A stretch of 64,000 nucleotides of DNA from Bacteroidetes bacterium 4572_112 (GTDB taxonomy: Bacteria; Bacteroidota; Bacteroidia; Bacteroidales; UBA1556), in NCBI GenBank assembly GCA_002254285.1, contig NIUZ01000001.1, forward strand, positions 701 through 64,700, written 5' to 3'. Shown here one piece after another: positions 3,747 through 56,865 of this stretch (positions are counted from its first letter, which is position 1; each line of letters begins with the position of its first letter). The notes below the pieces were generated by a model. The model saw only the letters and a program-made list of their open reading frames with translations, ran no database searches and was not told the origin of the DNA. The position numbers were made by a program, and so were the translations under genes.

Positions 3747-5594
3747 ATGAGGTTAATTCTTTCTATTCTATTCATCATATTATACATACCATCGGTGTTC
3801 TCATACAATCAGGTTCATATGTTGAATATAGATGTGCCAAATTCAACCACTGATTTAAATACATACACCTATGTTTATAGTACTTTAGATACTAATAGTG
3901 ATTTGAAATCTGTATTGGATGAAGAATTTGAATACAAGCCATCAGGACTAAATGTTGGTGTAAATAGCGAAATACATTGGATTAAATACACAATTAATAA
4001 TCAGAAAGAGCAGAACGAAAAATTATATATTAATTTTCCCTATAATCATATAAATAAGATTATAGTTTATGCTGTGCGCGATGGAAAAATAATCCGAAAG
4101 TCACGAGTGGGAACCTACTTCTCGCACTTTAGTAAAGACTTTGTTTGTAGGAATAATGTTATAGAAATAAATTCACAAGAAGGACTTACTGAATATTATA
4201 TTTATATAAATCATTTATATATGCCATTGCGTGCAGTTTCTTTTCTGCTCACCGAAACTGAAATGATAAAAAAAATAGCAGAAATTAATGCGCATATATG
4301 GTTTTGGAAGGGGATATTTGTATTTGCTTTGGTACTAACTCTAGTTTTATATATTTTAACGAAGGTAAAATCATTTCTTTATTACTTCCTGTTAAACCTT
4401 AGTACAGCCATGTTTTTTTTGATGGAAATTGGGGATTTTGTACTGCTTTTTGATAGAGATATTAATGGAATAATAATTGAAATTAAACATCTTGGAAATT
4501 GGTTAATTCTAATATTTTCACCATTATTTGTAAACTCTCTTTACCCCATAAAGAAAATGCGACCGAAGGTGTGGAAGACAATGTTTTCATTGGTATTAGT
4601 AATACCTTTTTTATGGACATTGGGCTTATTCCCTTACTTCAAAGATTCAATGTTCTTTTATTACAGTACTTATTATTTAATATTAGTTTCACTAGTAGTA
4701 TTTCTGTTAATGATATATTTTACATTGGTAGCATACCGTAATGGGCATAAATCAGCAATATTTTTATTTATAGCATATTTAATTTATGTGACAACGGCTA
4801 TCCTTAATATTATACTTCCTAATTTAGGTTTAAAGGAAAGTACTATGGATGTTTATGAGGTGTTTATTTATGGCTCACTCTTCGAAATATTTGTTTTTAT
4901 GGCACTTATGACAATTTCAACTTATGAAGTTTATTCACAAAAGATTAAGCTTGAAAAAGAACAGCGAAAGAATAAGCAAGATATGTTGGCTGCGGTTGTA
5001 AAAGGTCAGGAATTTGAAAGAAATAGAGTAGGAATTGAGCTTCATGACCTTGTTGGAGCAAATATATCTGCCATAAACCTTAAAGTAAATAGCGATGATA
5101 AAGAGTTGAAATCCATAATATCATCCACTATTGCAATTGTTCGTAATTTGAGCCATGGACTTGTAACGCCTTCAATTAAAGGAAACAGATTCTGTGATGA
5201 GGTAGTGGATTTATGCCTAGTTTTTTCAAATGATAAACTAAAAGCTGATGCCTCATTCTTTAATTGGAAAGGTCTTAAAAATCCCGAAAATATGACTCAT
5301 TTGTATAGGATTGTACAGGAGTTATTAAATAATGCGGTTAAACATAGTCAAGCAACAAGTGTAAACCTTCAGTTTGTTGTTAATGAACATGATGTAATGT
5401 CTGTTTTTTATGAAGATAATGGAATCGGCTTTAACTTACAGAAAGCTCTTAAGCAGGGTGGTATAGGTCTGCTAAATATTAATAATAGAATTGAATTGAT
5501 TGGTGCCGATATTACCTATGAAACAAATGAAGGTAGTGAGGGTACTACGGTTGTAATAGTTATACCTAATAAATTACAAACCTCTAGTTATTAG
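3747..5594 (+). CDS. 7TMR-DISM family sensor histidine kinase with a HisKA_3 / NarL-type dimerisation domain and HATPase_c
   Basis: Signal peptide, an extracellular domain, then about 7 hydrophobic helices. H-box ERNRVGIELHDLVGANISA. N-box LYRIVQELLNNAVKHS and G-box DNGIGF...GGIGLLNI. Confidence 0.8.
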   Translation: MRLILSILFIILYIPSVFSYNQVHMLNIDVPNSTTDLNTYTYVYSTLDTNSDLKSVLDEEFEYKPSGLNVGVNSEIHWIKYTINNQKEQNEKLYINFPYNHINKIIVYAVRDGKIIRKSRVGTYFSHFSKDFVCRNNVIEINSQEGLTEYYIYINHLYMPLRAVSFLLTETEMIKKIAEINAHIWFWKGIFVFALVLTLVLYILTKVKSFLYYFLLNLSTAMFFLMEIGDFVLLFDRDINGIIIEIKHLGNWLILIFSPLFVNSLYPIKKMRPKVWKTMFSLVLVIPFLWTLGLFPYFKDSMFFYYSTYYLILVSLVVFLLMIYFTLVAYRNGHKSAIFLFIAYLIYVTTAILNIILPNLGLKESTMDVYEVFIYGSLFEIFVFMALMTISTYEVYSQKIKLEKEQRKNKQDMLAAVVKGQEFERNRVGIELHDLVGANISAINLKVNSDDKELKSIISSTIAIVRNLSHGLVTPSIKGNRFCDEVVDLCLVFSNDKLKADASFFNWKGLKNPENMTHLYRIVQELLNNAVKHSQATSVNLQFVVNEHDVMSVFYEDNGIGFNLQKALKQGGIGLLNINNRIELIGADITYETNEGSEGTTVVIVIPNKLQTSSY

Positions 5595-5693
5595 AGGTAT
5601 TAAATCCTAAGTAGTAATTTCCTCTTTTGTAAATGATATTTCATCAAATAAAAACCCACTAATCTCATATAATAATTATTAGTTTATCATTTT

Positions 5694-5715
5694 ATAATGC
5701 ACATATGTGCATTAT
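5694..5715. promoter_or_regulatory. Perfect 22-bp palindrome, a candidate operator of the DUF134 operon
   Basis: ATAATGCACAT|ATGTGCATTAT is self-complementary over all 22 nt. It overlaps the -7 box at 5713-5720 and lies 23 nt upstream of the ATG at 5738. Confidence 0.5.
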
Positions 5716-5720
5716 CTTTG
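5713..5720 (+). promoter_or_regulatory. Bacteroidota sigma-A -7 box (TAnnTTTG)
   Basis: TATCTTTG lies 18 nt upstream of the DUF134 start codon and matches the Bacteroidetes -7 consensus TAnnTTTG. Confidence 0.5.
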
Positions 5721-5737
5721 CTGCCTAATAATTATAT

Positions 5738-6178
5738 ATGGCACGTCCTAAAAACAATAGAAGAGTACATACTCCACCATTATATAGTGGCTTTAAACCT
5801 GTTGGTGTAAAGCGAGGAAGTTTGCAAACCGTAAACCTTTCGTTAGACGAATACGAAGCTATTCGTTTGGCCGATAAATTAGGTTTGTCGCATTTGCGAG
5901 CATCCCAAGAGATGAGTATATCTCGTTCTACTTTTTCGCGATTGATAGAAAATGCAAGAAAAAAAGTGTCTGATTTTATCATCTCAGGTAAATTTTTGCA
6001 AATAGAAGGAGGTAATATACACTTTGAAAATAACTTTATAAAGTGTGCTCATTGCAACTACTTATTTAAGGTGTCAATATCGGCATCGGTATTGAATTGT
6101 CCCAAATGTGGCTCCAATGATATAAATAGTATTGCAGGTGAATATGGACATGGACAGTGTTGTACAACGGATGTTTAA
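5738..6178 (+). CDS. DUF134 / UPF0251 family predicted DNA-binding protein with an extra C-terminal zinc ribbon
   Basis: N-terminus MARPKNNRRV..PP....FKPVGV.......V.L..DEYEAIRLAD..GLSH..A...M.ISRSTFSRLIENARKKV is the DUF134 signature (sigma-70 region-4-like HTH). The C-terminus has CAHC...CPKC. Confidence 0.8.
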   Translation: MARPKNNRRVHTPPLYSGFKPVGVKRGSLQTVNLSLDEYEAIRLADKLGLSHLRASQEMSISRSTFSRLIENARKKVSDFIISGKFLQIEGGNIHFENNFIKCAHCNYLFKVSISASVLNCPKCGSNDINSIAGEYGHGQCCTTDV

Positions 6179-6196
6179 TTTGTTAATGATAATAAT

Positions 6197-7048
6197 ATGA
6201 AAATTGCAATAGCAAGTGGTAAAGGTGGGACAGGTAAAACAACTCTGTCAACAAATCTAGCTTCATTTTTGGCAGAAAGCAATAATGTTGTTTTAACTGA
6301 TTTGGATGTGGAAGAGCCAAACTCTGGCTTATTTCTGAAATCAGAATTGCTGCATCAAGAGGATAAACACAAAATGATTCCGGTATGGGATAGCACGGCT
6401 TGTACACTTTGTGGAAACTGTCAGCAGGTATGTAATTACCATGCTGTTTTGCGTATTTTGGATGACATTATGGTCTTTCCAGAGCTATGTCACTCATGTT
6501 ATGCTTGCTCCGAATTATGCCCTACAAACTCGCTTCCTATGCAAGCAAAGAAAATGGGTGAGCTAAGGCATTTCAAAACTCCTAAATTTGACTTTATAGA
6601 AAGCCGACTTATCATAGGTGAGGAACAAGCAGTGCCACTAATAAAGCAAACTCTTGATTATATTGATACTAATTTCACTGATGATTATATAAAAATATTT
6701 GACTCACCACCGGGTACTTCTTGCCCAGTGATAGAGGCTACAAAAGATGCTGATTTGGTAATTCTTATTACTGAGCCAACACCATTTGGTTTCAATGATT
6801 TGAAGTTAGCAATTGATACAATGTATGAGCTTAAAAAGAGCTTTGCAGTAGTAATTAATAGGTATGGAATAGGTAATAAAGATGTGGATAATTATTGTGA
6901 TAAAAAAAATATTCCAATAATTGCCAGAATCCCTAATGATAGAAAAATTGCTGAATTATATTCCAATGGCGAATTGCTATATGATAAAATTGTGGAAGTT
7001 AAGCAGCAGTTAGAGTCTGTAAGTAATTATATAAATACTTTAAAATAA
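6197..7048 (+). CDS. MinD/ParA-superfamily P-loop ATPase with an inserted 2x[4Fe-4S] ferredoxin domain
   Basis: Deviant Walker A SGKGGTGKTT. Two cluster motifs, CTLCGNCQQVC and CHSCYACSELCP. Walker B-like region DSPPGTSCPV. Confidence 0.8.
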   Translation: MKIAIASGKGGTGKTTLSTNLASFLAESNNVVLTDLDVEEPNSGLFLKSELLHQEDKHKMIPVWDSTACTLCGNCQQVCNYHAVLRILDDIMVFPELCHSCYACSELCPTNSLPMQAKKMGELRHFKTPKFDFIESRLIIGEEQAVPLIKQTLDYIDTNFTDDYIKIFDSPPGTSCPVIEATKDADLVILITEPTPFGFNDLKLAIDTMYELKKSFAVVINRYGIGNKDVDNYCDKKNIPIIARIPNDRKIAELYSNGELLYDKIVEVKQQLESVSNYINTLK

Positions 7049-7055
7049 GAATGAT

Positions 7056-7928
7056 ATGCGCGAAATAGTTGTAATATCAGGAAAAGGAGGAACAGGAAAA
7101 ACCTCTATAACAGCATCCTTAGCAGTACTAGCTGGCGAAGATGTGGTGGTTGCCGATTGCGATGTGGATGCAGCAGATATGCATATTCTTCTACAGCCTA
7201 AGAATAGTGTTTCTGAGGATTTTTATAGCGGAGAGCTTGCTGTAATAAATCAAGATATATGTACGCAATGTGGTGCTTGCTTTGATGTTTGCCGCTTTGA
7301 TGCCATTGATGTAAATGATGGTGTACATATAGTGGATGAATTATCGTGTGAGGGTTGTGGCTATTGTGCACGAGTTTGCCCTGTTGATGCGATTACTAAT
7401 ATCCCCTTAAATGTGGGCAAATGGCATATTGCAAAAACTCGTTTCAATCAGCATTTTGTACATGCCAAGCTTGGTATTGGTGCCGATAATTCGGGCAAAC
7501 TTGTGGCTCAGGTAAAGAATGTTGCCAAAGAAATAGCCATAAAAGAGAATAAGCAGTTTGTGCTTGTGGATGGTTCGCCAGGAGTTGGCTGCCCAGTAGT
7601 TTCATCGCTATCAGGAGCTAATTTTGTGGTTCTAGTTACCGAGCCTACTGTTTCGGGCTTGCACGACTTAAAACGAGTTTTTGAGTTGGTAAATAAGTTT
7701 CATATAAAGGCAGGTTGCATAATTAATAAGGCCGATTTAAACCTCGATAAAGCCAATGAGATAATCAAGTTTCTAAAGGATGAAAATATAGTGCATTTAG
7801 CAAATATCCCTTATGACGAAAGCTTTACCGAAGCAATGACAGAGTGTAAAACCATAGTAGAAATTGAAAATAGTAAAATAAAGCATCTAATTAATGATGC
7901 TTGGCAATTAATAAATAAAAACATATAA
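7056..7928 (+). CDS. MinD/ParA-superfamily P-loop ATPase with an inserted 2x[4Fe-4S] ferredoxin domain (paralog of the preceding gene)
   Basis: SGKGGTGKTS Walker A, CTQCGACFDVC and CEGCGYCARVCP motifs, DGSPGVGCPV. Starts 7 nt after the upstream stop. Confidence 0.8.
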   Translation: MREIVVISGKGGTGKTSITASLAVLAGEDVVVADCDVDAADMHILLQPKNSVSEDFYSGELAVINQDICTQCGACFDVCRFDAIDVNDGVHIVDELSCEGCGYCARVCPVDAITNIPLNVGKWHIAKTRFNQHFVHAKLGIGADNSGKLVAQVKNVAKEIAIKENKQFVLVDGSPGVGCPVVSSLSGANFVVLVTEPTVSGLHDLKRVFELVNKFHIKAGCIINKADLNLDKANEIIKFLKDENIVHLANIPYDESFTEAMTECKTIVEIENSKIKHLINDAWQLINKNI

Positions 7929-7940
7929 AAATAAATAGAT

Positions 7941-8327
7941 ATGAGTAATAAAAAAGTAGCTGTGCCAACATTAAATGGCATGTTAAGCGCGCATTTTGGC
8001 GGAAGTGAATATTTCACAATTTACGATGTAGTTGATAATAAGATTGTAGATACAGCAATATTGCCTGTTCCTGAGCATACCACAGGTTCGTATCCTAATT
8101 TTCTGGCAACGCAAAATATTACTGAAATTATAGTAGGTGGTATTGGCGGGAAGGCTATTACGATTTTCAATAATTTTGGAATTAATGTATTCCTTGGAGC
8201 CAATGTTAAAGATACTAAGCAATTGGTGGAAGAGCTGCTAGAGGGCAAATTGCAGCTAACAGGTAATTCATGCAATCACGAAGGTGATGGTCCTGAAAGC
8301 CATGGTGATCATAATCATCATCATTAA
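7941..8327 (+). CDS. NifX/NifB-C-terminal-like (Nitro_FeMo-Co fold) small protein with a His-rich tail
   Basis: KVAVPT..G.LS.HFG.SEYFTIYDV pattern, GIGGKA motif, and C-terminal HEGDGPESHGDHNHHH. Confidence 0.7.
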   Translation: MSNKKVAVPTLNGMLSAHFGGSEYFTIYDVVDNKIVDTAILPVPEHTTGSYPNFLATQNITEIIVGGIGGKAITIFNNFGINVFLGANVKDTKQLVEELLEGKLQLTGNSCNHEGDGPESHGDHNHHH

Positions 8328-8354
8328 TTTATTGAAAAATAAAAACACAAAATT

Positions 8355-8747
8355 ATGCTTACTGAAGAGATAATAAGTTTTTTTAATTCGGTGTCAATTA
8401 TGGCTTTGGGTACTGCTGATAGCAAAGGGACCCCAAATGTATCGGCAATAGCATCAAAAAAAATTATTGATGCCAATACAATCTTGACGATAGATACTTT
8501 TCATAATAAAACCATTGAAAATATTCTAGAGAATGATAAAGTTAGCTTGGCTATGTGGCGCGATTCTGAAGGCTACCAAATAAAAGGAAAGGCTAAATAT
8601 CATACCGAAGGTGATTTCTTTGAAAAAGCTAAAGAGTGGATTTTAGAATTAAAACCTAAGAAAATTGTAAAAGGTGTTTTGGAGATAAGCATTACAGATA
8701 TTTATTACCTAACACCAAATTATGAATTGGCAGGAAAAAGTATTTGA
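8355..8747 (+). CDS. Pyridoxamine 5'-phosphate oxidase-like (split-barrel FMN-binding) family protein
   Basis: 130 aa. The pattern L.eEi..F......MALGTADSKGTPNVS......I.D.NTIL....F..KT.ENI..N.KVSLA is typical of the Pyridox_ox_2-type split barrel. Confidence 0.55.
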   Translation: MLTEEIISFFNSVSIMALGTADSKGTPNVSAIASKKIIDANTILTIDTFHNKTIENILENDKVSLAMWRDSEGYQIKGKAKYHTEGDFFEKAKEWILELKPKKIVKGVLEISITDIYYLTPNYELAGKSI

Positions 8748-8825
8748 AACAAATAAAACATTAAACACGTGACTACACCTGCCTTTCGGCAGATAGGTAT
8801 CACCAAATTAATAAATTTTAAACTT

Positions 8826-9164
8826 ATGAAAATAGTATTTACAACACAAGGCACCGAATGGGATTCTAAAATGGATGCCCGATTTGGTAGAGCAAAATAT
8901 TTTCTTATTTATGATGAGGAAACTGAGCAATTGACAACAATGGATAATTCTGATGTGGAAAAAGAAGCCCACGGAGCAGGACCTAAAGCAGCTCAAAAAA
9001 TGGCTGAGGCAAAGGTTAATATTCTTATCACAGGAAATGGTCCTGGTGGTAATGCTGCTACTGTTTTGCAGCGCCTAGGTGTAAAATCATACATTGGTGC
9101 TGCAGATTATTCTGTTAAAGAGGCTTACGAAGCTTTTAACACAGGTAAACTTAAGGAATTCTAA
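8826..9164 (+). CDS. NifX/NifB-C-terminal-like (Nitro_FeMo-Co fold) small protein, second copy
   Basis: MKIVFTTQG......DARFGRAKYFLIYD...E, then GAGPKAAQ and ILITGNGPGGNA. The ORF track begins at a GTG (8769), but the ATG at 8826 gives the family-typical MKI N-terminus. Confidence 0.7.
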   Translation: MKIVFTTQGTEWDSKMDARFGRAKYFLIYDEETEQLTTMDNSDVEKEAHGAGPKAAQKMAEAKVNILITGNGPGGNAATVLQRLGVKSYIGAADYSVKEAYEAFNTGKLKEF

Positions 9165-9262
9165 TTTATCAATAGAATCTCAAAACACATAATATCCTCC
9201 AAAGTATTGGCTTTGGAGGATAGCTTACAACAAAAAATCACAAATCACATAAAACAATACCT

Positions 9263-9976
9263 ATGAACAAAGCAGCATTTTATGGTACAGCATGTATCAA
9301 TTTAGAAACTACTATTGGGAAATCCTCTTATAGTGGTGTATTGGATTTATTAGTTTTAGAATCAGATACTCATCCAAATTACTATTCAAGAGCAAATTTC
9401 CCACCAAATAAGCATAAAGATAATTGGCGCCTTTTTCTTTTGGTAAAGAAGCCTATTAATTGTTTTCAAGACCTTGTTCTTCGCAAATCGTATCAAATAA
9501 AGGATAAGCTTAGCTCAAATGTGGAGATTATGCCTGGGCAAATTGTATTCGAGAAAAAAGAAACTCAATGTATTAGAATTAATACCAATGATGCCACTTC
9601 TTTAGCAATGATTATTGAAGAATTTCAAGCAATAGGTATCGACTTTGTGAAAGATAAAAAAGTTAAAGAGTTTACCACAAAAGTATTTTTTAAGAGATAT
9701 ACAGAGTTTGTAAAAATTCAAGATGGGGTTTATTGTGATAGCGTTTTAGAAGGTAGATATTTCTTCGAAATCAATAAACTTATCGATTGGGAAGCATTTA
9801 TAAAAGGGGTAGAGATGATTAAGAATAATTGTAATTTTCATTTATTTGATCCATTCTTAGCATTTAATATTTCTCATGATAAAGCAAGTGATTTCTTTGG
9901 AATATATTCTGAACACTGTGACCAAGAGCGCTTTGGCGAGCTAAGAGATAATATAAATAGGGTATTCTCTTTATAG
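9263..9976 (+). CDS. Hypothetical protein (237 aa), no family recognised; last gene of the DUF134 cluster
   Basis: Long ORF on the same strand, 98 nt after the preceding gene, followed by a strong terminator. No signal peptide or TM segment, and no motif I can name. Confidence 0.5.
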   Translation: MNKAAFYGTACINLETTIGKSSYSGVLDLLVLESDTHPNYYSRANFPPNKHKDNWRLFLLVKKPINCFQDLVLRKSYQIKDKLSSNVEIMPGQIVFEKKETQCIRINTNDATSLAMIIEEFQAIGIDFVKDKKVKEFTTKVFFKRYTEFVKIQDGVYCDSVLEGRYFFEINKLIDWEAFIKGVEMIKNNCNFHLFDPFLAFNISHDKASDFFGIYSEHCDQERFGELRDNINRVFSL

Positions 9977-9993
9977 ATAAAATATTATATACG

Positions 9994-10030
9994 AATAAGA
10001 GCCGCTGACCTTTGGTCAGCGGCTCTTATT
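9994..10030. terminator. Bidirectional rho-independent terminator between convergent genes
   Basis: A 17-bp perfect stem, aataagagccgctgacc / ggtcagcggctcttatt, with loop tttg. T-runs follow on both strands. Confidence 0.8.
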
Positions 10031-10060
10031 GTTTTAGTGGAGGTGTTATTATTTCAAAAA

Positions 10061-12334
10061 CTACTTAATGATAAATTTCTTTTGAACTTTATTCCCATAG
10101 CTATCAATAATACTTACAAAATATATTCCTTTTGCAATGTCATAAAAACTAATAATTGTACTTCCATTTTCAGAGTTTGAGTTAAATGCAATCTTCTTTC
10201 CCAAGATATTCATAAGCTCAATTTCTTTTATTTGCACTCCTTTATGTTCAATAACTAAATTGTCACCTTTATTTAGTGGGTTGGGGAATAGCTTGATATT
10301 ATTTGCTTTTGATAGATTTATTCCATCGACCAAAACGTCAATATAGTCGTTTATTGTTATACTATCGCTTTCGGTAGTAGTGGAAATTACAAGTTTAACA
10401 CTGTACAGCCCTTCTGTTTGATATGTATGCAAAGGGTTTTCCATGGAAGAAGTGTCTCCATCACCAAAATACCAAATATAATTTTCGGGGCTTCCCAAAG
10501 ATGTGTTTTGGAAGTTGACGGTTAAAGGTGCTACCCCTGAAGTTATATCAGCATTAAAATCTGCTGACAAAGATTGCGGTATAATTCCATTATTTGCCGT
10601 ATTTGATCTGCTTGTATTATAGTTTGTATTGGCTTTATAATTATATGGTTGACAAATATATGGGCTCACAATCTCTACTTGATAATAAAGCGCTCCTGCA
10701 GGAGGATTTAAGTCGGTAAAGGAATTATTTAATCCACCTACTGAGTCTATCTTTACCCAATTCATACTAGGATCAGTACGCCATATTCTATATGTTTGTA
10801 CAGGAATTCCTTCATAATAATTCCATAAAAGATTCCATGAACTACCAGCTCCTTGATTTATGCTTAGGTGCATGGTTTTGTGTTTTCCACTAAGCGCGCT
10901 TTCATTGCCGCAAGAGTCTACATTCGATATTTTATACGAATATGCTTTCACTGCAGGATTTGAGTTTATATCCTCAAAAACCCCTGCTGAATCTGCTGGA
11001 ATAAATCCTATGGAATCATATACATTTACTACCGATGATTCGGCGTATATTTTATAATAATCAATTGCTCCTTGTATATGTTTCTCAAAAACAACAACAT
11101 TATGCCCTAAAACATCATCTACCGTTACCAAACATATAGAATCTGCATCCAATGCTCCAACATATACGGTCATAGTATCGGTAGAAGACAATGTGCCATC
11201 TGTTACAGTGCAATAGTAATCGTAGCTTTGCGTTAAGTTGCCAGTTACCAAAGTGTTTCCATTTATGGAAGCAGGAGTAGGGCCATTTGTTGTCCAAGTG
11301 TATGTTAGAGTTCCACTTCCTGAGTATGCAGGATTTGCAATAATTGTAGCAGGTTGGCTACAGTTAGTCGTGTCATCTGCCATGCTCAATTCAAGGTAAA
11401 CACCTGCACTTTCAGTTTTTATTATTGTGCCATTATCACCTACAGCATAAGCAGTATCATTGCTATAGCAATATATTGAATTCAGATTTTCTATTGTAGG
11501 GGAATTCTGTGTAACCCATGTAGTACCTCCGTTTATAGTATGTAGTATAATTCCTCCATCTCCCACGGCATACCCATTATTTGTATCCGAAAAATGTATA
11601 GCATTAATATGTGAAGTAGTTCCGGAGCTTAATGGAGTCCATGACATTCCACTATTTGTAGTTTTAAAAATATTGCCGCTTTCTGCAGCAGCAAAGCCAG
11701 TTGTTGCACTTACAAAGTATATATCATTTATTTTGCTAATGGTAGTAGAAGGTAATCCAAAATAGCTTGCCCCAGAGGTTGTTCTATTAATAAATCCTTG
11801 AATAAAATTATAATCACCACCCACAACACCATTACTAACATCAGTAAAATGAACAGCATTTAAAGTAAAAGTTGTTCCTCCAGAAATAATAGGGTCGCTC
11901 CATGTAGTTCCGTTTATGGTTTTTCTAATAATTCCAGCACCACCAACGGCATAACCAGTTGTTGCAGTTGGGAATTGCACATCATTAAGATTTGTTGTAG
12001 TTCCTGAGCTTTGTGTTGTCCACGTTGTACCATTACTCGAATAATAAATTGTTCCACCATTACCAACGGCCCATCTAGCAGCTGATGTTCCTGCAATTGC
12101 GTTCAGTGTAGATGTTCCCATTGATTGTGAACTCCAAATCAAACCACCATCAGTACTTTTTAGTATTTCACCTGCCGTTGCCGAACCTCCAACGCAATGT
12201 ATTATTGTGTCGTCTATTATCATTAAATCGTTTATGCTAGAGGTATAGCCAGAGTTCAAAGTCTGCCAACCACTTTGGGCATTCATACTTATTGATATTA
12301 TAAAAAGAAAGACGGATAGTATAATTGTTTTCAT
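10061..12334 (-). CDS. Secreted T9SS cargo with a BNR/Ycf48-like beta-propeller repeat region, a PKD domain and a type-A T9SS C-terminal domain
   Basis: Signal peptide. Repeated S/T-x-(D/N)-G-G/T-x-W motifs (STDGGLIW, SSNGTTWT, TINGTTWS, TNSGMSWT, INGGTTWV). PKD signature APLTVNFQNTS...WYFGDG...NPLHTY...G.Y.V.L. C-terminus LFPNPLNKGDNLVIE...GIYFVSI...KKFIIK. Confidence 0.75.
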   Translation of the reverse strand: MKTIILSVFLFIISISMNAQSGWQTLNSGYTSSINDLMIIDDTIIHCVGGSATAGEILKSTDGGLIWSSQSMGTSTLNAIAGTSAARWAVGNGGTIYYSSNGTTWTTQSSGTTTNLNDVQFPTATTGYAVGGAGIIRKTINGTTWSDPIISGGTTFTLNAVHFTDVSNGVVGGDYNFIQGFINRTTSGASYFGLPSTTISKINDIYFVSATTGFAAAESGNIFKTTNSGMSWTPLSSGTTSHINAIHFSDTNNGYAVGDGGIILHTINGGTTWVTQNSPTIENLNSIYCYSNDTAYAVGDNGTIIKTESAGVYLELSMADDTTNCSQPATIIANPAYSGSGTLTYTWTTNGPTPASINGNTLVTGNLTQSYDYYCTVTDGTLSSTDTMTVYVGALDADSICLVTVDDVLGHNVVVFEKHIQGAIDYYKIYAESSVVNVYDSIGFIPADSAGVFEDINSNPAVKAYSYKISNVDSCGNESALSGKHKTMHLSINQGAGSSWNLLWNYYEGIPVQTYRIWRTDPSMNWVKIDSVGGLNNSFTDLNPPAGALYYQVEIVSPYICQPYNYKANTNYNTSRSNTANNGIIPQSLSADFNADITSGVAPLTVNFQNTSLGSPENYIWYFGDGDTSSMENPLHTYQTEGLYSVKLVISTTTESDSITINDYIDVLVDGINLSKANNIKLFPNPLNKGDNLVIEHKGVQIKEIELMNILGKKIAFNSNSENGSTIISFYDIAKGIYFVSIIDSYGNKVQKKFIIK

Positions 12335-17533: not shown

Positions 17534-18373
17534 ATGCATAAATCACAAAAAATCACTCTAGGGTTTTCATCATGCCCCAATGATACTTTTATTTTTGATG
17601 CCATGATTCATGGTAAAATTGATACTGAAAGTCTTAGCTTCGATTTAATAATTGAAGATGTAGAGGAGCTAAATAGACGCGCATTTAATAATGAATTAGA
17701 TATTACCAAAATTAGTTTTAATGCTTATACCAAGCTAATAGATAATTATATACTATTAGATTCGGGAGCTGCTCTTGGCGAAAATTGTGGCCCACTTATT
17801 ATTGCAAATAAAGAAGTTTCTATGGACAAATTGCAGGATAAAGTTATTGCTATTCCAGGTATAAATACCACTGCAAACTTGTTGATGAGCTTAGCTTTTC
17901 CTGAACATAAGAATAAAAAAGAGATGATTTTTTCTGATATCGAAAAAGCTATTATAAGTGGCGAGGTTGATGCTGGATTAATTATTCATGAGAGTAGATT
18001 TACCTATGAACAAAAAGGACTTAAGAAAATTCTTGATATTGGTGAATACTGGGAGTCTACCACAGGAACTCCAACGCCGCTAGGTGGTATTATTGCCAAA
18101 AGAGAATTAGGGGAAGAATTAATCTTAAAAGTGAATAGGGTTCTTAAACGAAGTGTAGAATTTGCTTTTGCAAACCCTAAAAGTGGAATAGATTTTATAA
18201 GAGAACACTCGCAAGAAATGAGCGAAGAGGTAATGTATAAGCATATTGCCCTTTATGTTAATGATTATAGCTTGGATCTTGGTGCAAAGGGTAAATTAGC
18301 AGTAGAAAAATTATTTAAAGCTTCGAAGGAAGCTGGATTTATTCAAGAAAGTGATAAGAAGTTATTTTTATAG
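17534..18373 (+). CDS. mqnD: 1,4-dihydroxy-6-naphthoate synthase (futalosine pathway of menaquinone synthesis)
   Basis: N-terminus LGFSSCPNDTFIFDAMIHGKIDTE and overall length (279 aa) match the MqnD branch of the MqnA/MqnD family. Confidence 0.72.
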   Translation: MHKSQKITLGFSSCPNDTFIFDAMIHGKIDTESLSFDLIIEDVEELNRRAFNNELDITKISFNAYTKLIDNYILLDSGAALGENCGPLIIANKEVSMDKLQDKVIAIPGINTTANLLMSLAFPEHKNKKEMIFSDIEKAIISGEVDAGLIIHESRFTYEQKGLKKILDIGEYWESTTGTPTPLGGIIAKRELGEELILKVNRVLKRSVEFAFANPKSGIDFIREHSQEMSEEVMYKHIALYVNDYSLDLGAKGKLAVEKLFKASKEAGFIQESDKKLFL

Positions 18374-18967: not shown

Positions 18968-19690
18968 ATGCAATTAATCCTTGATTTCGGAAATACTTTT
19001 CAAAAATGTGCTGTCTTTGACAGAGAAAATATGATTTCTGATATCAAGTTTGAGAAAATTAGCTTGAATGATATTGTTGATTATACAAATAGTTTCCCCA
19101 ATATCAAATCTTGTATTTTGTCGTCGGTAATGAATACTCCTGAGGATATTATTGACTATTTAAATCATAAATTTGATTTTATTGAACTTAATTCTAAGTC
19201 ATTAATTCCTATAACAAATAAATATTCCACTCCTGATACTTTGGGTAAAGATAGATTAGCAGCAGCAGTAGCTGTTTGTAAATTAGCCAAAGGAAAAGCT
19301 GCTTTGTCAATAGATATTGGTACTGCCATAAAATTTGATTTAGTAAACAGCGATAAGGAATATTTGGGAGGAAGTATTTCTCCAGGATTATTTTTAAGAT
19401 TTAAGTCTTTGCATACTTTTACTGCAAAATTGCCGTTAGTGGATTACAACAATTTACATAGTTTAATTGGAACAGATACACAGACCTCAATATTATCAGG
19501 GGTTATGAATGGTGCAATTGCCGAAGTAAATGCTTTTATTGAGATATATAAGAGTCAATATGAAGGTATATTAATTTTTATTACTGGAGGAGAGAGTATT
19601 TATTTTGTAAATCATATAAAAAGTAAGATATTTGCCGTTTCAAATTTGGTACTTATAGGACTAAACGAAATTTTATTATTTAATGAATAA
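18968..19690 (+). CDS. coaX: Type III pantothenate kinase
   Basis: N-terminus MQLILDFGNTFQKCAVFD (the family's L.iD.GNT..K motif), followed by DRLAAAVA, DIGTA and GG motifs. About 240 aa. Confidence 0.8.
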   Translation: MQLILDFGNTFQKCAVFDRENMISDIKFEKISLNDIVDYTNSFPNIKSCILSSVMNTPEDIIDYLNHKFDFIELNSKSLIPITNKYSTPDTLGKDRLAAAVAVCKLAKGKAALSIDIGTAIKFDLVNSDKEYLGGSISPGLFLRFKSLHTFTAKLPLVDYNNLHSLIGTDTQTSILSGVMNGAIAEVNAFIEIYKSQYEGILIFITGGESIYFVNHIKSKIFAVSNLVLIGLNEILLFNE

Positions 19691-20960
19691 AGAAACAGAT
19701 TATAAATCGATTATTTTCTTTAGCATACTGATGTTGCTAACGACTTTAACCGCACAAGCACAGGTAAGATTAGAATCGCCATACTCAAGATTTGGTTTAG
19801 GAGATATCAATCCAGGATATAATGTCTTTCAATCATCAATGGGAGGTGTTTCCTATGGTGTTATTGACCCATACCGTATTAGCTCTATTAATCCAGCATC
19901 ATATGCTAAAATTGATACCGGTAGCTTTGTTTTTAATGCAGCATTCAATGGTTTGTTTGTAAACACAAAAACAGATGCTCAAGAGAATAATGCTAACTAT
20001 TTCAATATGGACTACTTAAAGTTTGCCTTGCCTATTACTGGTTGGTGGCGTACAAGTGGTGGTTTAGTGCCTTATTCTACTGTTGGCTATAACCTAAATA
20101 CATATAAAGATGTTGATTCTATAGGTAGCGTAAGATTAGGTTATACTGGCAATGGTGGAATTACCAAAGTTTATTGGGGAAATGCTTTTACATTATTTAA
20201 AGGTTTTGCTGTTGGGGTAAATGCTTCATATATGTTTGGTAATATAAATATTGCTCAGGAGAGTGAATTGCAGGAACATAGTACAGCTTTTAAGTATCGA
20301 ATTAAAAACTCGGTTGATTTGCGAGCTATGTATTTTGATTTTGGAATACAATACGATACTAAGTTTGGCAAGGATAAAGAATATTTTTTGGGTTTGGGAG
20401 CAGTATATGCACCTGAGCAATCTTTAAAAACTACTAGCTCATCACTAGGTGTAACATACACTGGTGGTGGCGAAGGCTTTGAGTATATTAAAGATACAGT
20501 ACTTTTGGTTGATAAAGGTACAGGAAGTGTAGTAATGCCAATGAAAATAGGTGGTGGTTTTAGTGTTGGAAAAACTGCAAAATGGATGATTGCTGTTGAT
20601 GCAACTTACGAAGAGTTTAGTAAGTTCAAAATTAGTGGATTAGATCAAGAATATAATGATAATATTAGATATAATATAGGTGGTCAGTACTTTGTTGGTA
20701 AGCTTGCTCTTAATGCAGGGGCCAATATTACAAACTCCTTTTTAAAATTGAATGGTACAGATATAAATGAATTTGGCATAAGTTTTGGTATGGGCTTCCC
20801 CCTAAAAAGTACTACGACTATGGTTTCATATATTGATTTAGGTATTGAAGCAGGACGAAGAGGTACAACAGACAATAACCTTATCGAACAAGATTATATA
20901 AGAGTGAAGTTGGGGATTAATATTAGAAATACATGGTTTAGAAGACCAAAGTATCTATAG
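19683..20960 (+). CDS. Predicted outer-membrane beta-barrel protein, uncharacterised
   Basis: Signal peptide (...LTAQAQ). Alternating amphipathic beta-strand pattern rich in G/Y/N. Overlaps the coaX stop by 8 nt. Confidence 0.6.
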   Translation: MNKETDYKSIIFFSILMLLTTLTAQAQVRLESPYSRFGLGDINPGYNVFQSSMGGVSYGVIDPYRISSINPASYAKIDTGSFVFNAAFNGLFVNTKTDAQENNANYFNMDYLKFALPITGWWRTSGGLVPYSTVGYNLNTYKDVDSIGSVRLGYTGNGGITKVYWGNAFTLFKGFAVGVNASYMFGNINIAQESELQEHSTAFKYRIKNSVDLRAMYFDFGIQYDTKFGKDKEYFLGLGAVYAPEQSLKTTSSSLGVTYTGGGEGFEYIKDTVLLVDKGTGSVVMPMKIGGGFSVGKTAKWMIAVDATYEEFSKFKISGLDQEYNDNIRYNIGGQYFVGKLALNAGANITNSFLKLNGTDINEFGISFGMGFPLKSTTTMVSYIDLGIEAGRRGTTDNNLIEQDYIRVKLGINIRNTWFRRPKYL

Positions 20961-20979
20961 AAATTAAAAATTGTAAATT

Positions 20980-22410
20980 ATGAATAAATTAAAATTAGTT
21001 ATTGCAAGTTTGGCAATGTTTATGTTTATTAGTGTTAGTGCACAGGAAACTGCTGCCACTTCGTCGAAAGAGCTTAATAGATTTGAAAAAAACAGAAGCG
21101 AGTTAGCCGGAAAATATGGTGCTGATAGTGTTAAATGTGTAATGGAACTTAGTTTATACAGAGAGTTCTATAAGCAATGGAAAGCAAGTAAATATACTGA
21201 AGATAATTTAGTGGATCAATCGTTCAAATCTTGGACTTATTGTTTTCACGCGGCTCCTATAGCTAGTAAGAATATGTATATTCATGGCGAAAGAATGGCT
21301 AAGCATTATATAAAGGTTAATAAAGATAATCCTGAAGTTAAACAAGCTTGGGTTGATACTTTAATGATGGTTTATGATCAACGTATTAAATACTACGGTG
21401 ATGATAAGGCAAAGCCAGAAGGTGTATTATTGGGTCGTAAGGCGCAATTCTGCCTAAAGTATGAAAAAGATAGCGCTAATCTTTATTATCCAGCTTTCAG
21501 AAAATCTTTTGAAATGATGGGTAACAACTCTGAGGAGCTTACATTATACTATTACTTTATTGCAAGTATATACTATGTGAAGCAAACAGGAGCTGAAAGA
21601 GATTTAATTCTTGAAAATTATGTCGAAATACAAGATGTTATAGCATATAATATGAATAAGTATGCTGATAATGCTAAAGTATATAGTCGTTACGAGAAGG
21701 TTTCTAATAATATTGAGAAAAATGTAAAGAAATTTGCTACTTGCGAAAAGCTTATTCAATTATACGGACCTAAGCTTGAGAATAATCCTGATGATTTGAA
21801 GTTGGCAAAAAATATTGTAAAATTCTTTGAAGCACGTAAGTGTACTAAGAATGATACCAACGATACTTATTTCAATGCATTGGCAAAGGTACATGCTGCT
21901 GAGCCAACGCCAGAGTCTGCTTTATCAATGGGTAAAATGGCTTTTGAAAGAGAAGAAACAAGTAAAGCTTTAACTTATTTAGAGGAAGCAACAAAAACTC
22001 TTTCTGATTCAAATGCCCTAAAAAAAGGTTCTGCTTATTTACTACTTGCTGAGGTATACCGATCAAAAGGTAAACTTGCGGCATCTCGTTCTGCTGCATA
22101 TAGCGTATTAAAATATAAGCCAAATGAAGGTATGGCATATATCATCATTGGTGACTTATATACTAGCTCTGCTGCTAAATGTACTTCACAAGGTTTGAGA
22201 GTTTCATACTGGGCTGCTTATGATAAATATAAGCAAGCACTTAATCTTTCAAAAGAGGATAAGATAAAAAACATCGCTCGTAAAAAGATGGCTGTTATCA
22301 AGAAAAGTTTCCCTGAAAACCAAGATCTTTTCATGAGAAATCTTAAAGAAGGACAGGCTATAAAAGTAGAATGTTGGATAAACGAAGAAACTAAAGTAAG
22401 AGCAAGATAA
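20980..22410 (+). CDS. Secreted helical-repeat (TPR-like) protein, uncharacterised
   Basis: Signal peptide (SVSAQE). Helix-rich repeat composition with A/L/Y/K periodicity. Starts 19 nt after the upstream stop. Confidence 0.55.
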   Translation: MNKLKLVIASLAMFMFISVSAQETAATSSKELNRFEKNRSELAGKYGADSVKCVMELSLYREFYKQWKASKYTEDNLVDQSFKSWTYCFHAAPIASKNMYIHGERMAKHYIKVNKDNPEVKQAWVDTLMMVYDQRIKYYGDDKAKPEGVLLGRKAQFCLKYEKDSANLYYPAFRKSFEMMGNNSEELTLYYYFIASIYYVKQTGAERDLILENYVEIQDVIAYNMNKYADNAKVYSRYEKVSNNIEKNVKKFATCEKLIQLYGPKLENNPDDLKLAKNIVKFFEARKCTKNDTNDTYFNALAKVHAAEPTPESALSMGKMAFEREETSKALTYLEEATKTLSDSNALKKGSAYLLLAEVYRSKGKLAASRSAAYSVLKYKPNEGMAYIIIGDLYTSSAAKCTSQGLRVSYWAAYDKYKQALNLSKEDKIKNIARKKMAVIKKSFPENQDLFMRNLKEGQAIKVECWINEETKVRAR

Positions 22411-31746: not shown

Positions 31747-33033
31747 TTATAATATTTTGGCCTTGATCTTGTCAATATCCAATAGTTGAATAATAGTAAG
31801 AAGAAAGAATAATAATCCTGGGACTCTATATCTTGATAATGCTCCTAAAACCGGAGTGCCTAATCCAATTATTATAAAGTAAATAATGGAAAATACTAGC
31901 GAAAACCATAATACATTTGAGTCATCAACATCCATACGTGGATATATTATTAGCAATATTATAAATAATAGAATGAACATATTTTCTACGGATGCAAATA
32001 TAGCAAGTAAATTATTTGCCTCCCACATCATTGGGCGAAATAAAGTGTTAATAATTGCTATTGGCGAATTTGATGCTATTGAAATTGAGTTTGCTTCAAA
32101 CATTATTGGTGAAATTATACTCCCCGAATTATCGTTTATTGCCAGTTCGGTTAGTTGTAATTGCTTATCTAATAATGAATTGAATATGCTTATATCCATA
32201 TACTTATCTGATTCGCTAGCAAAGCTAAAAGCAATAAATGCCAACATAAAGTATGGAACAAATGTGCGCTGACTTGGCCTAAAATGAATCCATAAATAGG
32301 CAAGCAATGGTGGTATTATTACAAATAACACAAAAGGCTTTATGCTATAGATTACCAATAGTGAAAGCAGAACAATTATGGCTCTTTTAAAAGGGTGTTT
32401 GCCTTGCAAGGCATAGTTTCCGCAGTTTATCAAAAGACTAATGGCAAACAGTATTAATGATTCCTTTAGTATGCCCGATGTCCAGTAAACTATTGAAGGT
32501 GTGAAAAATATTATTCCGAAAATAAACCATTTTAGCCTCTTCATTTTGGAATAGAAGAATAGGAAAATCCACCACAATCCTGTGAATGATAAAAACACAG
32601 TGAATATCATTATGCCACCATAAGTACCTAAAGTGAATATGCTTAAGAAAGCAATATATCGTATTATAAATCTATTGCTACTAAGGCTGTTAGATTCGCC
32701 AAATTCAAAATTATTTATTTGGATATAATATCTTTGAAGCTCTTTGTCGTTGGCGTTTTTGCCTGTAAGTAGTTTTGTGTAAATTGATATATTACCGTCT
32801 TCCAATGCCGAGAATATTACCTGCGCATCATCATAAAATCTGAATATATCAGCATCTCTTTTTATGGTTTCGCTACGCGAGTATATAAACAACATTGTTA
32901 CAGCAGCAATAAGCTTAACAATGTATGCAATGTTTATCCATAGCTTTGGAATAGCTCTGCTACGAAACATCTTAGTTCTATTTATGATAAAGAAACTAAG
33001 TGCCAAAAAAATTATGCTGATAATATAATTCAT
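31747..33033 (-). CDS. Polytopic membrane protein (10 or more TM segments), possibly a GT-C-like glycosyltransferase or polymerase
   Basis: Hydrophobic throughout with one larger loop (SESDKYMD...NDNSGS). No motif I can name; the functional guess rests on adjacency to hldD. Confidence 0.5.
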   Translation of the reverse strand: MNYIISIIFLALSFFIINRTKMFRSRAIPKLWINIAYIVKLIAAVTMLFIYSRSETIKRDADIFRFYDDAQVIFSALEDGNISIYTKLLTGKNANDKELQRYYIQINNFEFGESNSLSSNRFIIRYIAFLSIFTLGTYGGIMIFTVFLSFTGLWWIFLFFYSKMKRLKWFIFGIIFFTPSIVYWTSGILKESLILFAISLLINCGNYALQGKHPFKRAIIVLLSLLVIYSIKPFVLFVIIPPLLAYLWIHFRPSQRTFVPYFMLAFIAFSFASESDKYMDISIFNSLLDKQLQLTELAINDNSGSIISPIMFEANSISIASNSPIAIINTLFRPMMWEANNLLAIFASVENMFILLFIILLIIYPRMDVDDSNVLWFSLVFSIIYFIIIGLGTPVLGALSRYRVPGLLFFLLTIIQLLDIDKIKAKIL

Positions 33034-43380: not shown

Positions 43381-43399
43381 TGTTTAAGAATTAATTTTT

Positions 43400-44260
43400 A
43401 TGAAAAAGATATTATTATTTTTTGCTTTATTGTCAGCAGCTTTGGTTATTACCACTTCTTGCGATAAAGTGGATCCATCATGTAATGTTAATACAGGTGG
43501 TGGTTCTAAATCAGATACTATTCGCAAATTATTATTTGAAGATTATACAGGGCACTTATGTACTAATTGCCCTTCAGCACATGCTATATTAGATGATTTG
43601 CATAAAATATATGGTGACAGAATGGTAACTGTTGCTATACATACGGGCTTCTTCTCTATGCAAGCAGCTCCTCCTTACGATGCAGATTATAAATCTGTTG
43701 ATGGGGAAGATTTAGCATTGTTTTTTGGTGGAAATACGGCGCCGCTTCCTAAAGGGGTGGTAAATAGAGCTAAAGTAAATGGCTCATACCTTATTGAGCG
43801 TGCTGAGTTTTCTACGGAGGTTTCTAAAGTGCTTACGGACGAAAAGCCAGACTTATATTTAGAGGTGAAACCAACTTATACTGGTGGTAATACTTTTGAT
43901 GTAGAGGTGAAAATTACAGCTATGAAAGATATGCCTGCAGGTAAATATAATCTATCGGTATTGATTACTGAGAGTGATATTGTTTCGGCACAAAAGAATG
44001 TTGACCCTAATATTAATAATGGACAAGAAATGCTTGACTATCACCATAATCATGTATTGCGTGCCACGGTTAATACTACTTGGGGTGAAGAGTTTGCTGC
44101 TTCAATAAGCAATGGTCAAACGTTTACAAAAACGTATACAAATGTGCCTATAAATGCAGGGTGGGATACTGACAATATTAGTATTGTTGCCTTTGCATAC
44201 TATGCTGATGGCGCAAAAGAGAAAGAAGTTATTCAAGCACAAGTTGAAGAGCTTAAGTAG
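43400..44260 (+). CDS. Omp28-related outer-membrane lipoprotein with a CxxC motif
   Basis: Lipobox ITTSC. LFEDYTGHLCTNCP thioredoxin-like motif. Starts 19 nt after the barrel gene. The family name is from memory of Omp28-related proteins. Confidence 0.6.
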   Translation: MKKILLFFALLSAALVITTSCDKVDPSCNVNTGGGSKSDTIRKLLFEDYTGHLCTNCPSAHAILDDLHKIYGDRMVTVAIHTGFFSMQAAPPYDADYKSVDGEDLALFFGGNTAPLPKGVVNRAKVNGSYLIERAEFSTEVSKVLTDEKPDLYLEVKPTYTGGNTFDVEVKITAMKDMPAGKYNLSVLITESDIVSAQKNVDPNINNGQEMLDYHHNHVLRATVNTTWGEEFAASISNGQTFTKTYTNVPINAGWDTDNISIVAFAYYADGAKEKEVIQAQVEELK

Positions 44261-50083: not shown

Positions 50084-50210
50084 GGTATTATACCAAATTA
50101 ATATCAAAACACGCCATATAAATCGTTTATATTTCCCTATTACTGCGTTAAAAATTATTTCCATAGCTATACTTCGACATGCTCAGTACAGGCTTTTATG
50201 CAAATAATTT
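50084..50210. repeat. Composite repeat element, copy B (related to 30468-30605)
   Basis: See copy A. The 38-nt and 33-nt blocks are separated here by 52 nt. The element overlaps the stop codon (50209-50211) of the type-B T9SS cargo gene by 2 nt. Confidence 0.8.
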
Positions 50211-56569: not shown

Positions 56570-56865
56570 GTATATTAATAGATCTTCTAGAAAATCAATG
56601 TTCTATTTTGCGAGTTTTTGAAAAGAAAGCGACATAGACGAGGCTTTTGAAGTTTTTGAAATAAGGAGTTTACATTTTGTAATCGACTGTTTCAAAAACG
56701 AAAATAACGAAGTAATACCAATTGTTATTTAAAATGCGCTAAAGTGCATTTTAAATTTACAATGGTTTATGCCGAGATTAAATCAAAACTCTTTTAGAAG
56801 TGAATGAACTAAAAGAGCGTATTGATTTTTAATCGGTATAAATGTTGTTTTCTATCAAAAACTAA

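Follow-up and report, generated by a model that had tools for sequence, protein, structure and literature searches.

A probable orange-protein-type gene cluster in a Bacteroidota genome, with a DUF134 protein as its likely regulator

The stretch of DNA analysed here (hereafter the window, 64,000 nucleotides of contig NIUZ01000001.1, positions 701 to 64,700 of the forward strand, from Bacteroidetes bacterium 4572_112) carries a cluster of seven plus-strand genes, g1 to g7, that very probably is of the orange-protein (ORP) type known from Desulfovibrio, and that is best filed as a DUF134-regulated variant of that known system. As a whole, our best explanation, a Bacteroidota version of the ORP cluster, repressed by its DUF134 protein and engaged in an ATP-driven hand-off, is given a probability of roughly 60%, the separate parts being held with different degrees of confidence. 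The centre of the cluster is formed by two MinD/ParA-class ATPases, the ‘A-type’ g2 (6197-7048) and the ‘B-type’ g3 (7056-7928), both Orp3/Orp4-like and both with an inserted 2x[4Fe-4S] ferredoxin domain, and by two DiNase (Nitro_FeMo-Co) proteins, g4 (7941-8327), of the ‘HFG...CDH’ type and similar to the C-terminal domain of MrpORP/Orp9, and g6 (8826-9164), of the ‘RFGR’ type and homologous to the orange protein (Orp8). The first gene, g1 (5738-6178), encodes a DUF134/UPF0251 DNA-binding protein by Pfam, while g5 (8355-8747) encodes a small PNPOx-like split-barrel protein and g7 (9263-9976) a 237-amino-acid (aa) protein of an unnamed family. An earlier sequence-only reading of this DNA had described seven same-strand open reading frames (ORFs), a palindrome with a -7 box, and a terminator with a 17-bp stem, all of which are where it had placed them, and its six family calls agree with the Pfam scan (DUF134, CbiA/ParA with Fer4, Nitro_FeMo-Co, PNPOx_N).

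The reference for this comparison is the system of Desulfovibrio vulgaris, in which Orp3 and Orp4 are paralogues with two [4Fe-4S] ferredoxin motifs each (PMC6345978), Orp5 is a small Cys-rich [2Fe-2S] protein, Orp8 is the orange protein, and Orp9, or MrpORP, is an Mrp/NBP35 protein fused to a DiNase domain (PMC6345978, PMC8359166). The orange protein holds a non-covalent Mo-Cu-S cluster (PMC6345978). Orp3, Orp4, Orp5, Orp8, and Orp9 form a complex in vivo, which has been pulled down, and MrpORP passes Fe-S clusters to Orp3/Orp4 (PMC6345978, PMC8359166). Activation of the orp operons is due to OrpR, a sigma-54 regulator that senses the redox potential through a [4Fe-4S] cluster; transcription takes place only at low potential and is switched off when the potential rises (PMC6345978, PMC8359166). 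The sequence-only reading had described the trio of DUF134, MinD-ferredoxin, and NifX-like genes as having no experimentally assigned role, which needs amending in that the core of the window cluster is that of the studied Desulfovibrio cluster, and which stands in that the function of ORP is still called unclear by its authors (PMC8359166; see also PMC6345978).

Both core features of an ORP cluster are found in the window, the ATPase pair with two ferredoxin motifs in each member (g2/g3) and the single-domain orange-protein homologue (g6). With the Desulfovibrio system (D. vulgaris Hildenborough and D. gigas; Orp3, Orp4, Orp5, Orp7, Orp8, Orp9) the window cluster shares the paired MinD-type ATPases with their two [4Fe-4S] motifs each, the single-domain DiNase protein, a second DiNase module (g4) resembling the C-terminal half of Orp9, a regulator of its own at a promoter palindrome (the binding being predicted in the case of g1), and an association with anaerobes. 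In these terms, g2 and g3 correspond to Orp3 and Orp4 and g4 to the DiNase half of Orp9, and g6 is an Orp8 homologue. The two systems differ in that the window has one co-directional operon whereas Desulfovibrio has two divergent sigma-54 operons, in that the regulator is a small DUF134 helix-turn-helix (HTH) protein placed to repress instead of the PAS-AAA+ activator OrpR, in that neither the Mrp/NBP35 P-loop half nor a free-standing Orp5 accompanies the window cluster, and in that the HupZ-like split-barrel g5 and the 237-aa g7 are added. The DUF134 gene and its operator take the place of OrpR and sigma-54.

The two ATPases, 27% identical to each other, both match CbiA/ParA and two Fer4 motifs in Pfam, and both possess the Walker A sequence GKGGTGKT and two CxxCxxCxxxC motifs. 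Homologues of g3 number at least 8000, the best 120 listed being 66-99% identical. Across the 147 cluster ATPases collected, the Walker A pattern GKGGxGK[ST] is kept in 146, the two ferredoxin motifs in 143, and a PGxxCP cysteine after Walker B in 140, the last across phyla and in both paralogues; in the window it occurs as ‘PPGTSCPV’ in g2 (~6710-6733) and as ‘SPGVGCPV’ in g3 (~7578-7601). By analogy with NifH or Mrp, this cysteine may be an inter-subunit metal or cluster ligand. With the NifH, Mrp-NBP35, and CooC SIMIBI class g2 and g3 share the signature-lysine Walker A, the conserved cysteine after Walker B, and the association with cluster-carrier proteins; they differ from this class in carrying a complete 2x[4Fe-4S] ferredoxin domain after the P-loop and in being two obligate paralogues. 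A structure search returned no solved structure with such an ATPase-ferredoxin fusion.

The two DiNase proteins represent the two subtypes recognized in our survey, ‘HFG...CDH’ (g4 and the MrpORP domain; motif as defined in PMC6345978) and ‘RFGR’ (g6 and the orange protein). The match of g6 to Nitro_FeMo-Co (1.8e-17) is accompanied by a match to the D. gigas ORP structure (PDB 2wfb, 2.6e-11, residues 2-108), and of 73 cluster-linked members, 58 have the RFGR motif. For g4 (Nitro_FeMo-Co, 8.6e-15), the best NCBIfam match is MrpORP (NF041136, positions 264-365, 9.5e-24), to whose DiNase domain it aligns, keeping the HFG and the C-terminal C-x-H. Unlike MrpORP, g4 is the DiNase half only (84 bits against a 450-bit cut-off), its motifs are degenerate (SAHFGGSE, in which both cysteines of CxHFGHCE are replaced, and CNH), and a His-rich tail is added at its C-terminus (...HGDHNHHH).

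To see how much of the cluster is kept elsewhere, we scanned genomes with an alignment of the A- and B-type ATPases and built iterated profiles of all seven window proteins, with which every ORF of the resulting 80 loci was searched; by their record titles these loci represent about 25 phylum-level lineages, including one archaeon. The A-type ATPase gene lies directly upstream of the B-type gene in 74 of the 80, and a DiNase gene lies on the same strand within 3 kb in 68, with at least two such genes in 53 and both subtypes in 47. A DUF134 gene is present in 40 loci, upstream and on the same strand in 30, and an Mrp/NBP35 gene in 23, where the P-loop half of MrpORP is a separate neighbouring gene, its best model being precisely that half. 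Neither g5 nor g7 appears in any of the 80. Because of these counts, the conserved unit is smaller than seven genes: it consists of ATPase-A, ATPase-B, and one or more DiNases, often with DUF134. The recurrence of DUF134, MinD-ferredoxin, and NifX-like genes across anaerobes, which the sequence-only reading had mentioned, is borne out by the scan; its picture of a self-contained seven-gene operon is not, given the absence of g5 and g7 and a hairpin that splits g6 from g7, and its proposed test of neighbourhood conservation comes out positive for the ATPase pair and the DiNases, often also for DUF134, and negative for g5 and g7. Nor is the presence of the cluster in Bacteroidota remarkable, since many Bacteroidota genomes carry it.

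Other recurrent neighbours, as named by Pfam, are Zn_ribbon_8 Cys-rich (Orp5-like), CGGC, DUF5320, and ARMT1-like proteins, and further ORFs could be named from sequence alone as NifU-like and radical-SAM-like. In six of the loci examined (L076, 3212-4549, and five others), the gene next to the cluster encodes an OrpR-like enhancer-binding protein of the PAS-sigma-54 kind, and because of this we recognize two alternative regulator types, DUF134 or the enhancer-binding protein, for the same core. The only locus of the Desulfovibrio lineage that was recovered, from Maridesulfovibrio (L062, 6786-9516), encodes DUF5320, ATPase-A, ATPase-B, CGGC, and Zn_ribbon_8 Cys-rich proteins, with a divergent ARMT1-like gene and no DiNase gene; having this different arrangement, it was set aside as a reference for the canonical orp cluster.

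The principal new finding concerns the regulatory end of the window cluster. The g1 protein is a full-length member of DUF134/UPF0251 (COG1342; Pfam PF02001, 9.5e-20, 71.4 bits against a cut-off of 27, residues 2-94, profile positions 5-95 of 98), has the C-terminal zinc ribbon typical of such proteins, and is a member of the family rather than of the NCBIfam equivalog PRK04217 (44.5 against 115). In its AlphaFold2 model, with a predicted local distance difference test score (pLDDT) of 84.7, a sigma-70 region-4-like HTH superposes on region 4 of SigD and on the DNA-binding domain of DeoR at 0.8 A, while the zinc ribbon of HypA is the counterpart on which its C-terminal domain superposes. The four ribbon cysteines (C103, C106, C121, C124) and the GHGxCC tail that follows them are invariant among 56 homologues. 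The ribbon had been taken by the sequence-only reading for an addition to DUF134, whereas nearly all cluster-linked DUF134 proteins carry such a CxxC...CxxC ribbon. The ribbon and tail also match an Orp5-like Zn_ribbon_8 profile, at an E value (1.5e-4 in a 42-sequence database) that is weak for domains that match each other as easily as zinc ribbons do. By analogy, a role for ribbon and tail as a metal, Fe-S, or redox sensor is plausible. Nothing on the function or the operator sequence of DUF134 was found in the searchable literature, and, as far as could be checked, the operator proposed here is new.

This predicted operator lies within a perfect palindrome of 11+11 nt upstream of g1 (5694-5715, no strand; ATAATGCACAT followed by ATGTGCATTAT), of which the window holds one exact copy, and its 16-bp core (5697-5712, ATGCACATATGTGCAT) recurs identically in a Calditrichaceae genome (L016) and in L093, a close relative of the window cluster. 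When palindromes were sought in the 220 nt upstream of each DUF134 gene, that of the window turned out to belong to a motif, ATGnnCATATGnnCAT, which in many phyla precedes DUF134 or another gene of the cluster; related palindromes are ATGAACATATGTTCAT (Bacteroidales, Calditrichota, Chloroflexota), ATGAGCATATGCTCAT (Ignavibacteria, Zixibacteria), and ATGAGATATATCTCAT (Plebeiibacterium). A scan of the loci (1.17 Mb) for a pattern of ATG and CAT around ten palindromic bases, with one mismatch allowed, produced 30 sites against 5.5 in shuffles, 18 of them 11-75 nt upstream of a DUF134 start, and a position weight matrix of the operator produced 58 hits, with 5.65 expected from shuffles. The strong sites, 30 in all, are spread over 27 of the 80 genome loci, and 25 of them stand at the start of a cluster gene (20 DUF134, 4 DiNase, 1 ATPase-A); 21 of 34 DUF134 genes have a site. 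In addition, the variable bases of the operator change together with the residue that comes right after the invariant SR in the recognition helix: SR-S-TF helices pair with GCAC half-sites (5/5), SR-P-TF with GAAC (9/11), TFGR with GAGC (3/4), and TFAR with GAGA (2/2), a co-variation that is suggestive of DUF134 as the binder.

The -7 promoter element of Bacteroidota has the consensus TAnnTTTG. The box TAtcTTTG (5713-5720, plus strand), read from the sequence, fits this consensus and both abuts and overlaps the palindrome, and an operator abutting a -7 box is a feature of five Bacteroidota loci, being likewise seen in L093, L009, L094, and L011/L012. Since the operator abuts the -7 box, this arrangement implies that DUF134 would act by promoter occlusion, i.e., as a repressor. 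No match to a sigma-54 -24/-12 promoter occurs in 5595-5737, and a scan for sigma-70 promoters, whose model is the wrong one for Bacteroidota, gave 30 hits with 26.8 expected. Paired operator copies 26-34 bp apart stand upstream of the cluster in several loci (L031, 6041/6074; L018, 4929/4955; L065, 1079/1113; L063, 5954/5987; L037, 7074/7108; L029, 2244/2270), an arrangement that suggests cooperative binding by two DUF134 dimers. A weak second operator-like site in the window (ATGCGCTAAAGTGCAT, 15.5 bits, 56734-56749), between convergent genes, is probably a chance match.

That g1 is an operator-binding autoregulator, as the sequence-only reading had proposed, is backed by the conservation of the operator across phyla and by the co-variation with the recognition helix, and we consider it likely. 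The palindrome could instead belong to another global regulator, of the LexA type with its Cheo box GAAC-N4-GTTC, or be the terminator of the upstream kinase gene: many operator variants contain GAACATATGTTC, which resembles the Gram-positive SOS box, the palindrome can fold as a 9-bp hairpin, and sites also occur in loci that have no DUF134 gene within 8 kb (L037, L054, L083). Such an origin seems unlikely to us, as it is the sequence of the palindrome, and not its structure alone, that is conserved across phyla, as the ATG...CAT flanks are kept while the inner bases vary with the DUF134 helix, and as 25 of the 30 strong sites stand at cluster starts. The recA gene in the window has no operator site upstream, contrary to what an SOS box would suggest, and a terminator is made less probable by the lack of a U-tract after the palindrome and by its position, 100 nt past the stop codon of the kinase gene and against the -7 box. 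A much broader proposal, that DUF134/UPF0251 proteins are ancestral, pan-bacterial, metal- or redox-sensing repressors of ORP clusters, sensing via the 4-Cys ribbon and GHGxCC, reading ATGnnCATATGnnCAT, and tuned by the helix to its two variable bases, is speculative and somewhat doubtful.

The mechanism that we propose starts from g1, which would bind as a dimer to the core palindrome, a step that is well supported by the operator data. As the spacer up to the -7 box is taken up by this site, autorepression of the operon by g1 is most likely, and its Cys-rich ribbon and GHGxCC tail are candidates for sensing metal, Fe-S, or redox state, in which case g1 would be the counterpart of OrpR, the [4Fe-4S] regulator of Desulfovibrio. 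Less firmly, and by analogy, g2 and g3 may form an ATP-dependent heterodimer. Hydrolysis of the nucleotide would drive the transfer of low-potential electrons, or of a metal-sulfur cluster, to or from g4 and g6, the DiNase carriers, by way of the ferredoxin inserts and possibly the PGxxCP cysteines. This ATP-driven hand-off of clusters or electrons is modelled on the NifH, Mrp/NBP35, and CooC-type ATPases and takes into account that the Orp proteins, according to the published work, contain Fe-S and form a complex; it is put forward tentatively, at somewhat less than even odds. The corresponding inference of the sequence-only reading, ATP-driven metallocluster assembly or delivery, is reasonable but unproven.

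A number of points speak against this picture of a DUF134-repressed ORP cluster with an ATP-driven hand-off. An MrpORP/Orp9 fusion is missing, as is any Mrp/NBP35 gene within the 64-kb window; no separate gene for a free-standing Orp5 is found at the cluster; and the cluster includes neither an OrpR-like gene nor the sigma-54 promoter. The correspondence to Orp3/Orp4 was drawn from architecture, synteny, and the published description, and g4 may not share the cluster bound by MrpORP, as the N-terminal cysteines of the DiNase motif are missing from it. On the regulatory side, 13 of the 34 DUF134 genes have no detectable site, and the co-variation of helix and operator could stem in part from shared ancestry. 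The hand-off mechanism, finally, is an analogy; the hypothesis put forward for ORP in the literature is one of cell division.

The latter, the published working hypothesis (PMC6345978, PMC8359166), has the MinD-like pair acting, directly or indirectly, in septum placement or positioning under anaerobic conditions, with the metalloproteins as redox inputs. It draws on the morphological defects that follow inactivation of the regulator in D. vulgaris, attributed to the loss of Orp proteins, and on the localization of MrpORP to a cell pole (PMC6345978, PMC8359166), and both g2 and g3 do score against MinD models and MinD structures. These scores are 38-66 bits for TIGR01968/TIGR01969 against cut-offs of 202-213 (50-66 bits against about 200 among the better ones), neither minC nor minE or any MinC- or MinE-like partner is seen near the cluster, and no division genes recur next to the cluster, whose repeated neighbours encode Fe-S and metal proteins (DiNase, Mrp/NBP35, NifU-like, CGGC, Zn-ribbon); with the ORP authors themselves calling the role unclear (PMC8359166), we judge a division role improbable for the window cluster. 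Another alternative is a function in storage or detoxification of Fe-S (or Mo/W-sulfur), in which the DiNases would store metal-sulfide in the manner of the thioferrate protein IssA, the ATPases would load and unload them, and the His tail of g4 would serve as a metal store. Pyrococcus IssA is of the same DiNase family and stores thioferrate via its C-terminal tail (cited in PMC6345978), the orange protein holds its Mo-Cu-S cluster non-covalently (PMC6345978), and His-rich tails are found in g4 and some of its Bacteroidota relatives. Yet few of the g4-type proteins listed have such a tail, most of them ending at CDH, and the tail of IssA is cationic, not His-rich (PMC6345978); this possibility, which largely overlaps with our best explanation, we regard as quite improbable as a separate one. 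Least probable by far is an accessory role in the maturation of nitrogenase or its iron-molybdenum cofactor (FeMo-co), with a NifX/NafY-like carrier and a NifH-like ATPase. It is suggested by the Nitro_FeMo-Co fold of g4 and g6, by a weak match of g6 to NifX (TIGR02663, 8.5e-5, 23 bits against a cut-off of 112; g4 has no match), and by weak Fer4_NifH matches in the Pfam scan of the cluster proteins. All scores against nif models are far below cut-off, the cluster is found in about 25 phyla, mostly of non-diazotrophs, its DiNase domain (PF02579) is present in 65% of anaerobes versus 7.6% of aerobes (PMC13386939), and the approximately 30 large annotated ORFs of the window include no nif, hydrogenase, or Mrp genes, in agreement with the sequence-only reading, whose case for independence from nitrogenase is strengthened by this.

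As a system, the cluster of the window is of no new kind and would not surprise a specialist: the MinD-ferredoxin pair with DiNase is among the most widespread anaerobe-specific gene sets, and few Pfam domains predict an anaerobic lifestyle as well as the DiNase domain does (PMC13386939). What is new is, on the one hand, a sharply defined cross-phylum operator with DUF134 as its probable regulator, through which this uncharacterized family can be tested as a transcription factor and regulons can be predicted across many genomes, and, on the other hand, the unnamed 237-aa g7 family, which in Bacteroidota has been recruited more than once, either to the cluster or to its regulon. Provided that the operator is assigned correctly, the client that the ORP ATPases serve in the cell might be traced by comparing regulons. 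If DUF134 is indeed the ancestral ORP repressor, genome-wide mapping of the operator would define the full ORP regulon, including the g7 family in Bacteroidota, and this could show which metalloenzyme or process depends on the two ferredoxin-ATPases, one candidate being a nitrogenase-independent, NifH-like, ATP-driven step of low-potential reduction or cluster insertion.

The remaining two genes appear to be accessories of limited distribution. The g5 protein has a PNPOx_N split barrel (1.2e-18), as do HupZ, HutZ, HugZ, and the small PNPOx-like flavin mononucleotide (FMN) proteins, and its nearest solved relative is the haem-binding HupZ (7.6e-10, residues 1-99); it differs from these in a match to HutZ that is far below the NCBIfam cut-off (20.5 bits against 225) and in its lack of conservation with the cluster outside close relatives (L093). 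From its sequence, g5 might be a lineage-specific accessory, with FMN or haem as candidate cofactors. The sequence-only reading had made it a flavoprotein and the reductant of the system, a proposal that is left unsupported by this narrow distribution and by nearest characterized relatives that bind haem.

No match in Pfam, NCBIfam, or PDB was obtained for g7, which the sequence-only reading, too, had been unable to place; its profile finds nothing in PDB, and 82 members of the family and 10 distant relatives that were scanned have no Pfam domain. The close homologues (n=113), all of about 237 aa and without a Pfam domain, are, where the source is named, all from Bacteroidota metagenome-assembled genomes (MAGs), and the profile search gathers 325 representative clusters of the same length. 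The AlphaFold2 model (pLDDT 87.7, predicted TM score 0.85) consists of two tandem ferredoxin-like alpha/beta halves. A coproheme decarboxylase/chlorite-dismutase-like protein and a tandem ACT protein were considered and rejected, the Foldseek matches being too weak (E ~4e-3, TM score 0.27), and a 4-Cys metal-binding protein was set aside as well, the cysteines being kept in the Bacteroidota subfamily only and not in the wider family. The g7 gene is the last of the cluster both in the window and in L093 (61% identity). Elsewhere, a homologue is found inside the cluster, between ATPase-B and DiNase (L009, 41%), in an operon DUF134-Cupin_7-g7 (L094), at a distance of 3 kb from the cluster with an operator and -7 box of its own (L012), and standing alone (L007 and L095). 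Based on these contexts, g7 is a recurrent, non-obligate member of the DUF134 regulon in Bacteroidota, and, less certainly, it may be viewed as a lineage-specific accessory of the cluster. The homologues in L007 (5113-7800) and L012 (1327-4287) adjoin genes for a multihaem cytochrome c (Cytochrome_cB) and a Ni_hydr_CYTB/PAS membrane protein, and a cytochrome bd oxidase operon lies directly 3' of the cluster in L009, neighbours that hint at a link with respiratory or redox functions.

In the window, the seven genes are separated by gaps of 18, 7, 12, 27, 78, and 98 nt. An alternative start of g6 exists (GTG at 8769), upstream of the ATG at 8826; the latter is the likely start because the homologues are 112 aa long. 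Between g6 and g7 lies a perfect 12-bp hairpin that the sequence-only reading had overlooked (9193-9222, plus strand, folding free energy (dG) -19.7 kcal/mol, z -6.2), with no U-tract on the plus strand, and a different hairpin, of 18 bp, occupies the same position in L093. This element is possibly a partial terminator, or one that stabilizes or processes the RNA. Due to this strong hairpin after g6, a transcript of six genes plus one is as likely as a seven-gene transcript. The start of g7 is only 40 nt past the hairpin, with no evident -7 box between the two, and g7 may be expressed via read-through. A second hairpin, with a perfect 17-bp stem (9994-10030, no strand, dG -34.2 kcal/mol, z -8.3), sits between convergent genes and terminates g7 on the plus strand and probably also a 757-aa gene on the minus strand. 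A scan of 5400-10400 with Rfam gave nothing above any gathering score.

The GC content of the cluster (32-37%) is that of its surroundings, and therefore there is no sign of a recent island. The identical cluster is present on six metagenome contigs, and its closest named relatives are Ichthyobacteriaceae and Flavobacteriales MAGs. Directly 5' of the cluster, a 7TMR-DISM sensor histidine kinase is encoded (3747-5594, plus strand), without an adjacent response regulator; this kinase is probably unrelated to the cluster, because its synteny with the latter is limited to near-identical contigs and is broken in the 61%-identical relative L093. The other annotated ORFs of the window encode housekeeping functions and type IX secretion cargo, including three large cargo proteins, one with BNR/PKD and Por_Secre_tail domains (10061-12334, minus strand), one with Omp28 and Por_Secre_tail (38894-40906, minus strand), and one with a CHU_C sorting domain (50209-52755, minus strand). 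The gene for a DUF6029 protein (564 bits, full length) and, directly after it, one for a protein of the Omp28 family (41731-44260, plus strand) may form an outer-membrane pair. At E <= 1e-5, Pfam leaves four large ORFs unmatched, of 425, 476, 428, and 603 aa (19683-22410, plus strand; 31747-33033, minus strand; 54381-56192, plus strand). A VitK2_biosynth gene of the MqnA/MqnD type (17534-18373, plus strand) points to menaquinone synthesis by the futalosine route.

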